Source: a virus (Duplodnaviria > Heunggongvirae > Uroviricota > Caudoviricetes). Taken from it: a DNA stretch of 30,675 bases. The DNA is taken from the IMG/VR virus record IMGVR_UViG_2721755724_000001, one strand, 5' to 3'. The notes beneath the pieces are model-generated. The model was given only the letters and a program-made list of their open reading frames with translations. It was not told where the DNA came from and did no database searches. A program made the position numbers and the translations under genes. Shown here piece by piece: positions 4,224-9,273 of the stretch; the stretch's first letter is position 1, and the number at the start of each line of letters is the position of its first letter.

Positions 4224-4415
4224 TTAAAGACCTGCCGGGATTTCGATATTATCCTGGTGAATAACTTTATCGACCGGGTAACAGTTACCGGGAATTTTCT
4301 GTTCGGTTGCTGCAGTCATACACTCCTGCATTGTCCTGTGAACACTGACTGCAATATCAACTGGCTCTCCGGAAACAAGAAAAACTGTCAGAACAAGCGC
4401 AAATGCTGAATTCAT
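4224..4415 (-). CDS. ydfD: YdfD-like small lysis protein
   Basis: 63-aa product from the internal Met (MNSAFALVLTVFLVSGEP...), N-terminal hydrophobic segment; start overlaps the dicB stop as ATGA, as in the Qin dicB operon. Confidence 0.6.
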   Translation of the reverse strand: MNSAFALVLTVFLVSGEPVDIAVSVHRTMQECMTAATEQKIPGNCYPVDKVIHQDNIEIPAGL

Positions 4416-4600
4416 TGTGCACATCCTTTTGGCATCAGACGTAAACGAGCCAGCATTGAAACAATGCATATTTTATTTAATAGCTCCCGTTCTTGTTTTC
4501 TCTTGTTAATGGCATCTTCAGTAAATACAGGGTTACTGATAGTGACACCAATTTCAAAACAACCTTCAGACGTATTAACGTTTGGTAATAACGTTTTCAT
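4412..4600 (-). CDS. dicB: Cell division inhibitor DicB
   Basis: 62-aa product MKTLLPNVNTSEGCFEIGVTISNPVFTEDAINKRKQERELLNKICIVSMLARLRLMPKGCAQ matches DicB as I recall it; GAGGA Shine-Dalgarno 7 nt upstream; DicF lies immediately upstream. Confidence 0.8.
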   Translation of the reverse strand: MKTLLPNVNTSEGCFEIGVTISNPVFTEDAINKRKQERELLNKICIVSMLARLRLMPKGCAQ

Positions 4601-4770
4601 TATCGCGTCCTCAACAATGAATTTTGTGATGCAGTGCCTGGTGCCTCCAGGTGACGTTAACCAGTTAACAATTAACGCCGGATACAGAGAATCCACCCAT
4701 AACACTGTTTTTGGTTTTAACTGTTCCGCGTGCGCTTAGCCGCATTCACCGCATCACAAAATTCACTTTA

Positions 4771-5637: not shown

Positions 5638-5849
5638 CGTCAGCCTCATCAGTCAGTGTTTCTGGCTAACCAGCAACGCGCGCCAGATTCGGTTTTAAAC
5701 GTTTTGCTTTTGGTATATGTCATCGCGGTGAACGTACCGTCCTGGTTGGGGAACACGCCACATACAGGAGGCATCTGGCGGCGAGCTTCTGTATGATCCC
5801 AAGGTTTATGACGAATATCGTAAGACGAAGCGGGCGGGGCGGTTGAACA
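5638..5849. promoter_or_regulatory. Divergent intergenic region, probable immunity/early promoter-operator region
   Basis: About 210 bp between divergently oriented genes; contains the palindrome AAACGTTT and the dicC remnant. No operator repeats confidently identified. Confidence 0.3.
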
Positions 5850-5866
5850 ATGAAAATCACTCCTGA
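5732..5866 (+). pseudogene. dicC: 3' remnant of Cro-like repressor gene dicC
   Basis: Frame encodes ...QEASGGELLYDPKVYDEYRKTKRAGRLNNENHS*, matching the C-terminus of DicC as recalled; the frame is closed by a stop at 5729 with no start codon, so only about 44 codons remain. Confidence 0.45.
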
Positions 5867-6371
5867 ACAGGCTCGTGAGGCTCTGGATGCCTGGATATGT
5901 CGACCAGGAATGACACAGGAGCAGGCGACGATATTAATCACTGAAGCATTCTGGGCTTTGAAAGAGCGCCCGAACATCGATGTTCAGCGTGTCACAGATG
6001 AAGGTGGCGCGGTTGATCAGCGAGCGCTTGGCGTTAATCGAGTGAAGATATTCGAACGCTGGAAGGCTATCGACACTAGGGATAAGCGTGAAAAGTTCAC
6101 GGCGCTAGTGCCTGCAATTATGGAGGCTATCCGGATTAATGATTTCAGGTTGTATCGTGAAATTAGTGACGGAAAAAGCATCACGTACATGATCGCCGGG
6201 TTAAACAAAGAATATGGCGATGTGGTGGAGTCCGGACTGCTTTTTGCTGATCCTGCCGTAGTGGATCGTGAAACTGACGAACTTATAGAAAAAGCAATTG
6301 CTTTCAAACTTGCGTATCGACAGCAATACCAACAAAAAGCTGGATGGAATTATGAGCCTTCTTTTTGCTGA
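5850..6371 (+). CDS. Hypothetical phage early protein (173 aa)
   Basis: ATG-initiated ORF downstream of the cro-like remnant and upstream of the replication initiator; family not recognised. Confidence 0.55.
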   Translation: MKITPEQAREALDAWICRPGMTQEQATILITEAFWALKERPNIDVQRVTDEGGAVDQRALGVNRVKIFERWKAIDTRDKREKFTALVPAIMEAIRINDFRLYREISDGKSITYMIAGLNKEYGDVVESGLLFADPAVVDRETDELIEKAIAFKLAYRQQYQQKAGWNYEPSFC

Positions 6372-7317
6372 ACGCCCACTGGTTATAAACACACAGCTTG
6401 CGATGAAGATTGGCTTAAATGAAGCCATTGTGTTGCAGCAGTTGCATTACTGGTTGAGAGATACCAATTCCGGCATGGAATGTGATGGTGTTCGCTGGAT
6501 TTACAACACAACGGAACAATGGCTGGAACAGTTCCCATTCTGGTCAGAGTCAACGTTAAAGCGCGCGTTTGCAAGTCTGAAAACGCTGGGGCTTTTGCGT
6601 TGTGAAAAGCTCAATAAATCAAAGCGCGATATGACCAATTTCTACACGATCAACTATGGGAACGAGCTTTTAGATGGTGGCAAATTGAACGAATCCATCG
6701 GTTCAAAATGCGCCGCTCCATCAGGTCAAAATGACACGATGGAAGAGGTCAAAATGAAACGCTCCATTGGTTCAAAACGACCCAATGTCATCGGGTCAAA
6801 ATGGCCTGATGATCTTACAGAGAATACAACAGAGATTACTACAGAGAATAAAAACACTTTTCGTCCGGAAGCTTCGCAACCGGACCCGCAGACCGCTGAA
6901 CAGGATTTTTTAATCCGGAACCCCGACGCGGTTGTGTTTAGTGCGAAAAAACGCCAGTGGGGTAGCAGGGAGGATTTGGCGTGTGCGCAGTGGATTTGGG
7001 GGCGGATCGTGAACCTTTACGAACAGGCTGCCAGCGACGATGGAGAGATCATGCGACCAAAAGAGCCTAACTGGACAGCCTGGGCCAATGACGTGCGCAC
7101 AATGCGGATGCTGGATGGCAGAAGCCACAGACAAATTTGCGAAATGTTTGGTCGGGTACAGCGAGATCCATTCTGGGTAAAAAACATCATGAGCCCGTCA
7201 AAACTCCGCGAAAAATGGGACGAACTGGTCATCCGCTTGGGACGTTCACCTGTACAGCGTTGTGTGAATCATATTTCTGAACCGGATACAGAAATTCCGC
7301 CTGGTTTCAGGGGATAA
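6352..7317 (+). CDS. Phage replication initiator / replisome organizer (O-like)
   Basis: N-terminal winged-helix-like region (ERPLVINTQLAMKIGLNEAIVLQQLHYWL...), a central linker encoded by an iteron array, and a C-terminal region resembling DnaT/replication protein C-termini; start taken as the ATG at 6352. Confidence 0.65.
   Translation: MSLLFAERPLVINTQLAMKIGLNEAIVLQQLHYWLRDTNSGMECDGVRWIYNTTEQWLEQFPFWSESTLKRAFASLKTLGLLRCEKLNKSKRDMTNFYTINYGNELLDGGKLNESIGSKCAAPSGQNDTMEEVKMKRSIGSKRPNVIGSKWPDDLTENTTEITTENKNTFRPEASQPDPQTAEQDFLIRNPDAVVFSAKKRQWGSREDLACAQWIWGRIVNLYEQAASDDGEIMRPKEPNWTAWANDVRTMRMLDGRSHRQICEMFGRVQRDPFWVKNIMSPSKLREKWDELVIRLGRSPVQRCVNHISEPDTEIPPGFRG
6695..6805 (+). repeat. Five direct iterons (core GGTCAAAATG-like) at 23-24 bp spacing, followed by an A-rich stretch: probable phage origin inside the initiator gene
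   Basis: TCAAAA cores at 6703, 6726, 6749, 6772 and 6796; A/T-rich ACAGAGAATACAACAGAGATTACTACAGAGAATAAAAACAC follows at 6810-6850. Confidence 0.6.
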
Positions 7318-7644
7318 GTGTTGATTTCAGGTCATGAGGTAATTTTAAGGAGGACTTGTGGCAAAAGTTTTTACACAGGAAGAGCGGGAAAAAATTAAAG
7401 AGCAGGTGGTCGAACTTGTGCGCCAGAGCGGTCGCGAGACATTACGACAGTTGGAAGCTAAAACAGGTGCGACAAGATATCTGATGAGCATTCTTGCCAG
7501 AGAGCTGGTTGCCAGTGGTTATGTATACAACTCCGGCTACGGGTTATTCCCGTCTGAACAGGCACGAAAGGACTGGCAAAATGCCCGCAAAAAACTCTCT
7601 AGGGCGAAGGTGAAGAAACCCGCTGTGGTTGATTGGATTTGCCC

Positions 7645-8550
7645 CTATATTTCCAGACATCTGTTATCACTTAACCCATTACAAGCCCGCTGCCGCAGAT
7701 ATTCCCGTGGCGAGCGATAACCCAGCGCACTATGCGGATGCCATTCGTTATAATGCTCGAACGCCTCTGCAAGGTTCTTTGCTGCCGTTAACCCGTCTGG
7801 TTTGGGCATGATACTGATGTAGTCACGCTTTATCGTTTTCACGAAGCTCTCTGCTATTCCGTTACTCTCCGGACTCCGCACCGCCGTGTTCTTCGGTTCA
7901 AGTCCCAACATCCGGGCGAACTGGCGTGTTTCATTAGCCCGGTAGCATGAACCATTATCCGTCAGCCACTCCACTGGAGACGACGGAAGATCGTTGCCGA
8001 AGCGGCGTTCCACCGCTCCCAGCATGACGTCCTGTACTGTTTCACTGTTGAAGCCGCCGGTAGTGACCGCCCAGTGCAGTGCCTCACGATCACAGCAGTC
8101 CAGCGCGAACGTGACACGCAGTCTCTCTCCGTTATCACAGCAGAACTCGAACCCGTCAGAGCACCATCGCTGATTGCTTTCTTTCACGGCCACTCTGCCT
8201 GTATGTGCCCGTTTCGATGGCGGTACAGCAGGTTTTCGCTCAAGCAACAGCGCATTCTGGCGCATGATCCGGTAAACACGTTTGGCATTGATCGCAGGCA
8301 TACCATCAAGTTCTGCCTGTCTGCGAAGCAGCGCCCATACCCGACGATAACCATACGTGGGCAGCTCTCCGATAACATGGTGTATACGGAGAAGCACATC
8401 CGTATCATCAGTGTGACGACTGCGGCGGCCATCCATCCAGTCATCGGTTCGTCTGAGAATGACGTGCAACTGCGCACGCGACACCCGGAGACAACGGCTG
8501 ACTAAGCTTACTCCCCATCCCCGGGCAATAAGGGCGCGTGCGCTATCCAC
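7645..8550 (-). CDS. insD: IS2 transposase OrfB (InsD), full length
   Basis: 301-aa ORF ending ...[37 protein letters not shown]; normally expressed as an InsCD frameshift fusion. Confidence 0.9.
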
Positions 8551-8873
8551 TTTTTTGCCCGTCCATATTCAACGGCTTCTTTGAGGAGTTCATTTTCCAT
8601 CGTTTTCTTGCCGAGCAGGCGCTGGAGTTCTTTAATCTGCTTCATGGCGGCAGCAAGTTCAGAGGCAGGAACAACCTGTTCTCCGGCGGCGACAGCAGTA
8701 AGACTTCCTTCCTGGTATTGCTTACGCCAGAGAAATAACTGGCTGGCTGCTACACCATGTTGCCGGGCAACGAGGGAGACCGTCATCCCCGGTTCAAAGC
8801 TCTGCTGAACAATTGCGATCTTTTCCTGTGTGGTACGCCGTCTGCGTTTCTCCGGCCCTAAGACATCAATCAT
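8508..8873 (-). CDS. insC: IS2 transposase OrfA (InsC)
   Basis: 121-aa product [26 protein letters not shown]... matches IS2 InsC. Confidence 0.9.
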
Positions 8874-9273
8874 CTGTTCTCCAATGACTAGTCTAAAAAC
8901 TAGTATTAAGACTATCACTTATTTAAGTGATATTGGTTGTCTGGAGATTCAGGGGGCCAGTCTATTGATCCGGACCTTATCTGGTCACTACCTGATGGAG
9001 AAATACGTCGCTACGACAGTCGTCTAAACATAATCTGTCGCGAGTGCCGGAAGAGCGAAGTTATGCAGCGCATACTGGCATTTTATCAGTGAAATTTTCG
9101 TTATTTATAGACGTAACTAGATTAAAGAGCATTAGTTCAGATGTGAATTGACATTTTCACGGCACAGGATTGAGCTAGCGTGGTTGTCTGCTTTGCGTCA
9201 AAAGCAGATATTACCAGATTTAGACATCTATTCCCGATAGCCCTGCTCTGATGCCACACTCTGTGCTATTTTC

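Follow-up and report, generated by a model that had tools for sequence, protein, structure and literature searches.

Phage lambda and the RepA_N plasmids carry their replication origins inside the genes of their own initiators. In lambda, the iterons to which dimers of the O protein bind are inverted repeats of 19 bp that contain an A-tract and adjoin an A/T-rich region; the A-tract provides a bend, and two iterons together with the A/T-rich tract are enough for unwinding of oriλ (PMC7466680). In plasmid pSK41, the N-terminal domain (NTD) of Rep binds Rep boxes in the center of rep, the central domain encoded by the origin is a dispensable linker, and the C-terminal domain (CTD) is host-specific (PMC5703833). 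RepA_N replicons are defined by semi-palindromic direct repeats converging toward a poly-A tract, central in the rep coding sequence (PMC5703833, PMC7145576), and by Pfam they have been counted as rare in Gram-negatives (PMC7145576). Here we describe a phased repeat array within an O-like initiator gene in a 30,675-nucleotide stretch of viral DNA (IMG/VR record IMGVR_UViG_2721755724_000001), referred to throughout as the window. An earlier inspection of the letters by themselves, the sequence-only reading, had proposed this array as a probable origin; every computational prediction made from that proposal was borne out, and we consider it likely that the array is the replication origin of a lambdoid (mEp460/CP-933O-type) Escherichia coli prophage, located inside its own initiator gene, in the central part that encodes the linker. 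The placement of an origin inside an initiator gene is already known; here it is found in a family for which it was not previously described, and a literature search with older subscription literature outside its range returned no description of this origin.

Results

Anatomy of the repeat array and adjoining elements

The array consists of six head-to-tail 23-bp units at 6673-6811, five with the core GGTCAAAATG and one degenerate unit upstream (Table 1). The cores lie at 6701-6710 (GTTCAAAATG), 6724-6733 and 6747-6756 (both GGTCAAAATG), 6770-6779 (GTTCAAAACG), and 6794-6803 (GGTCAAAATG), giving spacings of 23, 23, 23, and 24 bp, the sum of which is 93 bp or 31 codons. Tandem Repeats Finder (TRF) reported a period of 23 over 6694-6767 with a score of 71. 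The spacing of 23-24 bp given in the sequence-only reading was thereby upheld, whereas its count of five becomes six when the degenerate unit 0 is included. Across the whole window there are eight matches to GGTCAAAATG with at most one mismatch, four of them inside 103 bp, and a search with the core 10-mer found no second iteron cluster in the window. The units are also imperfect palindromes: each 23-bp unit is arranged around an A-tract, with the consensus CATCAGGTCA-AAA-TGACCCGATC derived from 60 enterobacterial units. The symmetry of the three best units was reached by 0.065% of random 23-mers taken from the window. The array starts at gene nucleotide (nt) 345, or at nt 322 when unit 0 is counted, and the six units, the A/T-rich block that follows, and an inverted repeat together occupy gene nt 322-534.

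The A/T-rich segment reported earlier behind the repeats was confirmed. It begins 1 bp past unit 5, and GC content falls to 0.30 at 6820-6859, compared with about 0.45-0.6 around it, with an AT skew of +0.5. Its three 12-mers read ACAGAGAATACA, ACAGAGATTACT, and ACAGAGAATAAA; by inspection, they contain no match to a DnaA-box or 13-mer consensus. A GATC (Dam) site at 6811-6814 falls exactly where the last iteron meets the 12-mer block; most enterobacterial relatives keep this site, and it is missing from loci L095 and L100. The inverted repeat to the right of the block has the form GTCnGGTTGC-nnn-GCAACCnGAC in relatives, where 89.5% of the cells of the alignment (A2) were paired, compared with 17-40% when the register was slid. 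One of its pairs was compensated (GC 14, UA 4, CG 3), and in the compensated forms both arms carry non-synonymous substitutions (Ala/Gln to Ser/Lys or Pro/Glu).

Selection on DNA rather than peptide

As 23 is not a multiple of three, successive units are read in three frames, and the five core-bearing units encode the peptides SIGSKC, PSGQND, EEVKMK, SIGSKR, and VIGSKW. We compared mean pairwise identity by codon position among ten colinear homologs drawn from E. coli, E. albertii, Klebsiella, Citrobacter, Enterobacter, Raoultella, and Izhakiella. In the part encoding the N-terminal domain (N-domain), identity was 0.58 at third positions and 0.90 at positions 1 and 2. Third positions reached 0.80 in the iterons (Mann-Whitney U test, p=6e-7), where positions 1 and 2 gave 0.85, and 0.97 in the 12-mers (same test, p=4e-7), where positions 1 and 2 gave 1.00 and 0.81, respectively. 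All three codon positions in the repeats are thus constrained about equally, which is a signature of selection on DNA.

For the 12-mers, the reading frame is constant across clades and could not discriminate between DNA and protein constraint; codon usage did. When these repeats were defined from the peptide alone in 46 loci, their glutamate codons were GAG in 133 of 133 cases, compared with 384 GAG to 493 GAA in the remainder of these genes (Fisher p=1.7e-43), and their threonine codons were ACA in 109 of 109. We concluded that both repeat families are under DNA-level purifying selection and that the SIGSK peptide repeat is a by-product of the DNA repeats. The sequence-only reading had placed the repeats correctly within the initiator coding sequence; the repeated SIGSK-type linker that it saw there is incidental.

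Conservation of form with covariation of sequence

Scanning viral contigs with a single N-domain sequence returned only copies 97-100% identical, which were useless for conservation tests. It was replaced by an alignment-based scan with one genome per species, which found the same N-domain encoded at 80 loci, the sources being Enterobacterales, Pantoea, Pseudomonas, Photobacterium, Acinetobacter, Moraxella, Bacillus, Staphylococcus, Lactobacillaceae, Clostridia, and others. A phased array was scored when at least three copies of a 9-mer (at most one mismatch) occurred at 22-24 bp in the 370 bp after the N-domain. Of 76 homologous loci, 43 had such an array; among 573 control windows taken from these loci there were 2 with one, and among 76 shuffles there were none; the homologous loci are related by phylogeny, so that these counts are not independent events. 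Conservation in homologous initiator genes, on which the earlier proposal had been made to depend, was thus found.

The position and phase of the repeats are conserved, and so is their form, NNNCA-(A/T-rich 3 nt)-TGNNN; the letters are clade-specific. The two arms change in concert from clade to clade, as GGTCA/TGACC, GGACA/TGTCC, GGGCA/TGCCC, GTGCA/TGCAC, GATCA/TGATC, TATCA/TGATA, and CCGCA/TGCGG, and the repeat sequence covaries, and is co-inherited, with the type of N-domain. Symmetric changes of this kind are what dimer-binding sites should display if they were retargeted along with the protein that binds them.

Mosaic relatives gave the same association. Klebsiella phages have only the N-domain and repeats (query nt 100-550) in common with the window, and other E. 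coli prophages only query nt 554-1020, so the mosaic breakpoints fall at the end of the 12-mers, at query nt about 550-554. A hybrid in E. coli ETEC4090 (L169:1021-1968) combines an unrelated helix-turn-helix N-domain with the C-terminal half found in the window (89.5% nt identity); its repeats differ (GAyCCnTCArAT), the 12-mers are missing, and the junction corresponds to window position ~6858. This natural module swap is followed downstream by a gene for an ATP-binding, possibly DnaC-like, protein. A second natural variant, a 290-aa allele (L168:3289-3430, E. coli GCA_054853035.1; clusters P0028-P0032), has lost exactly 93 bp in frame relative to window 6696-6788. Four iterons are gone by recombination between unit 1 and unit 5, while the allele keeps unit 0, a single hybrid unit, and the 12-mers; at the protein level, the change is a 31-aa deletion in the central linker, and the module around the allele, DUF977 included, is intact. 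Comparable losses of iterons in frame are described for lambda ori mutants in a passage of PMC6022878.

A 12-mer cassette shared by several initiator types

The 12-mer motif (A/C)CAGAGAnTAC occurs in 2-5 copies at a 12-nt period on the 3' side of the last iteron in 49 loci across phyla, encoding TE[NIT]T in one frame throughout. The same block, at 97.5% identity, stands behind different iterons in the O genes of Stx phages. A scan of IMG/VR for two adjacent 12-mer copies returned at least 120 matches, and 80 loci were examined among the matches listed. In these, the window type of N-domain was found 46 times, the Stx type 13 times, and a third type, marked by 'MSRYAPTPEVMAIGQINISGNV...', ~17 times; the 12-mer block was nearly always in mid-gene, after the N-domain, in initiator-like open reading frames (ORFs). 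The ACAGAGAwTACw array is thus a cassette common to at least three initiator N-domain types (window 6817-6852; loci L086-L165, L005, and L170-L249).

Domains of the initiator protein

The identification of the gene as a replication initiator was supported. Its product matched PHROG 391, 'replication initiation O-like', over its full length (E=1.7e-92), with residues 17-321 aligned to positions 11-298 of the 298-position profile, and by BLASTP aa 147-294 of the C-terminal half were 34% identical to lambda O over 148 aa (E=2e-28). The RefSeq entry, WP_000054483.1, is labelled 'hypothetical protein'.

An AF2 model of the full-length protein was of low confidence (mean pLDDT 52) and was left out of the fold search. 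It showed a structured N-domain and a helical C-terminal domain (C-domain) and, between them, aa 101-178 with pLDDT below 50 and without secondary structure; in this low-confidence model the stretch encoded by the repeats would look like a flexible linker. The N-domain was modelled again alone with a deeper alignment, and the resulting model, which covers aa 14-100, was a winged helix with a predicted fold closest to RepA_N/DnaD-NTD, the match being moderate. Searches of the PDB with the N-domain by sequence, as protein and as profile (A4), gave nothing significant and no RepA chain.

The C-terminal tail (VNHISEPDTEIPPGFRG) matched PDB sequences 2ru8, 6aep, and 9zbt at DnaT residues 159-179. 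The NCBIfam DnaT model NF002770 gave 16.3 bits against a cut-off of 201, confined to positions 160-179, the last 20 residues, and the initiator does not belong to the DnaT family by this equivalog cut-off. The resemblance, limited to the tail, explains the RAST label 'Primosomal protein I' on the mEp460 homolog. Among homologs, the tail was seen in Enterobacterales only. None of 16 scored tail-bearing loci had a Walker-A ORF downstream, compared with 14 of 54 others, and further visible tail variants also had none. We considered the tail as a strict marker of loader-less ('solo') modules and rejected this use of it, since the ETEC4090 hybrid combines the tail with a downstream ATP-binding protein and host clade confounds the comparison. 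The preprimosome paper contains no statement on the role of the DnaT tail.

Table 1. Positions of the initiator gene, its domains, and the elements of the predicted origin in the window
Feature	Position	Strand	Description
O-like replication initiator gene	6352..7317	+	321 aa; holds all origin elements; based on the ORF list, RefSeq start at MSLLF
N-terminal winged-helix domain, presumed iteron-binding module	6352..6672	+	aa 1-107
Iteron unit 0	6673..6695		GATGGTGGCAAATTGAACGAATC; degenerate in the window, good copy (GATGAGGTCAAAGTGACC...) in relatives
Iteron unit 1	6696..6718		CATCGGTTCAAAATGCGCCGCTC
Iteron unit 2	6719..6741		CATCAGGTCAAAATGACACGATG; 8/10 dyad symmetry
Iteron unit 3	6742..6764		GAAGAGGTCAAAATGAAACGCTC
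Iteron unit 4	6765..6787		CATTGGTTCAAAACGACCCAATG; 8/10 dyad symmetry
Iteron unit 5	6788..6811		TCATCGGGTCAAAATGGCCTGATG; 8/10 dyad symmetry; adjoins A/T-rich region
A/T-rich, A-skewed segment, presumed unwinding element	6812..6857		three 12-mers at 6817-6852, TRF period 12
Inverted repeat GTCCGG-N11-CCGGAC	6863..6885		directly right of A/T-rich segment; left edge of exchangeable C-terminal module
Helical C-terminal domain, lambda O C-terminal-half homolog	6886..7251	+	BLASTP; PHROG 277/2357 on aa 157-309; AF2 helices 179-306, low confidence
C-terminal 21-aa tail VQRCVNHISEPDTEIPPGFRG	7252..7314	+	near-identical to C-terminal tail of host primosomal, replication-restart protein DnaT

Prophage setting

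The element is a lambdoid prophage inserted beside rspB, and E. coli E2855 matches the whole window at 100% identity. Genes follow one another in the order CI-like repressor, Cro, YdaT/CII-like gene, initiator, and DUF977 gene. The gene preceding the initiator (5850-6371, + strand) is YdaT_toxin/CII-like (PF06254, PHROG 163), and shares 20 nt at its 3' end with the start of the initiator gene. Directly 3' of the initiator no helicase-loader gene, P-like or DnaC-like, was found, either here or in mEp460 phages; the gene in that place is DUF977, in the window as in the viable phage mEp460, and a PerC-like gene in mEp460_4F5. The initiator gene is 99% identical to its counterpart in the cultured, viable phage mEp460_ev081, and at least 80% of it was found in 1,747 of 5,426 complete E. 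coli genomes.

An IS3-family (IS2-like) insertion sequence (IS) element at 7645-8918 splits the DUF977 gene (7358-7644; PHROG 142, 'Ren-like exclusion protein'), and farther along the prophage RefSeq annotates IS1203 and a truncated tape-measure gene beside IS91. The prophage is thus defective; the initiator gene is intact within it. The early-left region upstream holds homologs of the cell-division inhibitor DicB and of YdfD (4412-4705, - strand). An Rfam search of 5800-7700 found no RNA family, and no promoter-like site was found in the initiator gene or in or near the array; on these grounds a reading of the array as an RNA element or internal promoter was dropped.

Discussion

Proposed mechanism

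By analogy with lambda O and oriλ and with pSK41 Rep, we infer binding, unwinding, helicase recruitment, and origin firing at this locus as follows. Dimers of the winged-helix N-domain would bind the six contiguous 23-bp semi-palindromic iterons at half-sites GGTCA/TGACC around the A-tract, and the bound iterons, together with the intrinsic bends of the A-tracts, would form a nucleoprotein array that is bent, as in the lambda O-some or a RepA_N-ori complex. On supercoiled DNA, such an array may strain the adjacent block of three ACAGAGAwTAC 12-mers and lead to its opening. The lambda-O-like C-domain and the DnaT-like tail could then recruit host DnaB-DnaC, no phage loader gene following the initiator.

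A more tentative proposal, possible in our judgment though on balance doubtful, is that the 12-mer array is an origin element not recognised before, one that acts by its specific sequence as a site of opening or helicase loading, comparable in function to the oriC 13-mers or DnaA-trios, that passes as a cassette among at least three N-domain types of phage initiators and is conserved from Enterobacterales to Firmicutes, and that with it goes a RepA_N-fold initiator family, unrecognised by Pfam, that is common in Gram-negative prophages. As part of the same joint proposal, the helicase loader of the phage could have been supplanted by the lambda-O-type C-domain and its DnaT-mimicking tail.

Several observations weigh against the array being an active origin of the kind proposed. 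The N-domain lacks the Pfam RepA_N signature (PF06970) and had no Pfam match at E<=0.1 beyond noise; the N-terminal 146 aa of the initiator showed no BLASTP similarity to the lambda O N-domain; and the structure model of the full-length protein was weak, as its mean pLDDT indicates. On the DNA, right half-sites are weak in three of the six window units (5-6 of 10 dyad positions), and the A/T-rich block is moderate in its A/T content (70%). The four-unit-deficient variant persists in E. coli, so that a small number of units is enough, as it is in lambda, or else the variant is dead, and in this IS-degraded prophage the origin, even if intact, may never fire in this strain. The literature, older subscription papers lying outside the search, yielded no binding, unwinding, or firing data for this origin or a close relative.

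Alternative explanations

An array that is a genuine initiator-binding site might serve mainly in control, by operon autorepression, handcuffing and incompatibility, or initiator titration, while phage initiation takes place elsewhere. A passage of PMC3401445 assigns plasmid iterons such a dual role, in initiation and control, RepA_N NTDs tetramerise (PMC5703833), and the comparative evidence presented above bears on selection for binding sites rather than on firing. We nevertheless judge this explanation improbable. An A/T-rich, DNA-constrained block and an inverted repeat always stand directly behind the binding array, which is the canonical origin layout; the array has the same position as the mapped origins of lambda and pSK41 (PMC5703833); and the window holds neither a second iteron cluster nor a promoter-like site in or near the array.

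It is also conceivable, though very unlikely, that the 12-mer block, and perhaps the inverted repeat too, has been kept mainly as a recombination 'linker', a patch of homology for swapping the N- and C-modules of initiators. The coincidence of mosaic breakpoints with the 12-mer end fits this explanation, as does the presence of the block in Stx-phage O genes, with other iterons, and with at least three N-domain types. However, the motif persists, its ACAGAGA invariant, in homologs from Firmicutes, Deltaproteobacteria, and Thermomicrobiales that are much too diverged for recent exchange, and a homology patch needs neither a fixed place beside the last iteron nor A/T richness; moreover, roles in recombination and in unwinding are not mutually exclusive.

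The idea that the repeats are a protein-level feature, a flexible repetitive linker with SIGSK/TENT motifs that arose by slippage and has no DNA function, we regard as scarcely credible: xIGSK is encoded by three of five units, the 12-mers keep one frame in all 49 loci, and the repeat-encoded region lacks confident structure in the poor full-length model, but every reading frame is represented among the 23-bp units, conservation in the repeats is higher at synonymous sites and lower at non-synonymous sites than in the folded domain, contrary to a protein-level explanation, the GAG and ACA codons of the 12-mers are invariant, and the units are DNA palindromes with compensatory changes in their arms.

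Significance

The reading of the array as a replication origin would provide a probable origin, with putative half-sites resolved to the base pair, for a module present in about a third of complete E. coli genomes, as counted above, and in the cultured phages mEp460, HannyBb, and PhiR42_1. The module links two textbook systems, joining the lambda O C-domain to a predicted RepA_N-like N-domain with RepA_N-style iterons. Its compensatory half-site changes form a natural specificity series for studying how winged-helix initiators are retargeted, and the role of the 12-mer element is accessible to synonymous recoding. Origins of this kind determine replication incompatibility among co-resident prophages, and cloned copies would be usable as 'origin decoys' against phage. 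What goes beyond a routine annotation is the pan-phylum, codon-invariant 12-mer cassette, the clean half-site series, and an initiator family, modelled with a RepA_N fold, that is abundant in E. coli prophages.

Comparison with known origins

The likeness to lambda ori that the sequence-only reading had pointed out holds for position (nt 345 vs. nt 349), layout, and the C-terminal half of the initiator; it does not extend to the N-domain, which is RepA_N/DnaD-NTD-like by its model instead. In lambda, the iterons occupy gene nt 349-433 and are spaced by 20, 24, and 23 bp; behind them come an A/T-rich tract and then a palindrome, GTCAGAG...CTCTGAC, at the position equivalent to the prophage inverted repeat. 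Both the lambda origin and the predicted one occupy the central part of an initiator gene, where the N- and C-domains meet (lambda nt 349; prophage nt 322 or 345, depending on unit 0), both have tandem inverted-repeat units around an A-tract 20-24 bp apart, and both have an A/T-rich tract and then an inverted repeat on the 3' side, followed by homologous C-terminal halves. Iteron number is variable (4 vs. 6), with in-frame iteron deletions, as it is in lambda and the six-iteron Stx phages 933W and P27. The differences are that the N-domain is unrelated in sequence; that the iteron is GGTCAAAATGACC in the prophage and TCCCTCAAAACGAGGGA in lambda; that the prophage units are contiguous 23-mers and its A/T-rich tract is an array of sequence-constrained 12-mers; and that a P-type or DnaC-type loader gene is absent downstream, whereas the initiator has a DnaT-like tail, which lambda O lacks.

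With the RepA_N replicons (pSK41, pTZ2162, and pAD1 of Firmicutes and the PLE RepA of Vibrio cholerae), the prophage system has in common a predicted winged-helix NTD of ~110-120 aa, repeats in the center of the rep gene, and a putative linker encoded by the origin; the third part of a RepA_N initiator is a host-range-specific CTD (PMC5703833). Unlike these replicons, it does not match PF06970 and its N-domain profile finds no RepA in the PDB, its CTD is lambda-O-like and not of the DnaD- or DnaG-binding type, its host element is an E. coli lambdoid prophage and not a Gram-positive plasmid, and an ACAGAGA 12-mer array stands behind the iterons.

Rep_3 iteron plasmids (pPS10, F, R6K, and P1) likewise have initiator repeats phased at about two helical turns beside an A/T-rich unwinding element; there, however, the rep gene does not contain the origin and the direct repeats are bound by monomers, and the prophage initiator has no Rep_3 or DnaA homology. 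A presumed unwinding element made of short tandem repeats is a feature in common with E. coli oriC, in which this element consists of three 13-mers. Because homology to the lambda O N-domain, a downstream loader gene, and a Pfam RepA_N match were all sought and none was found, the system is a strict member of neither of its two closest relatives, and yet it has all the architectural features of oriλ and of the RepA_N replicons.

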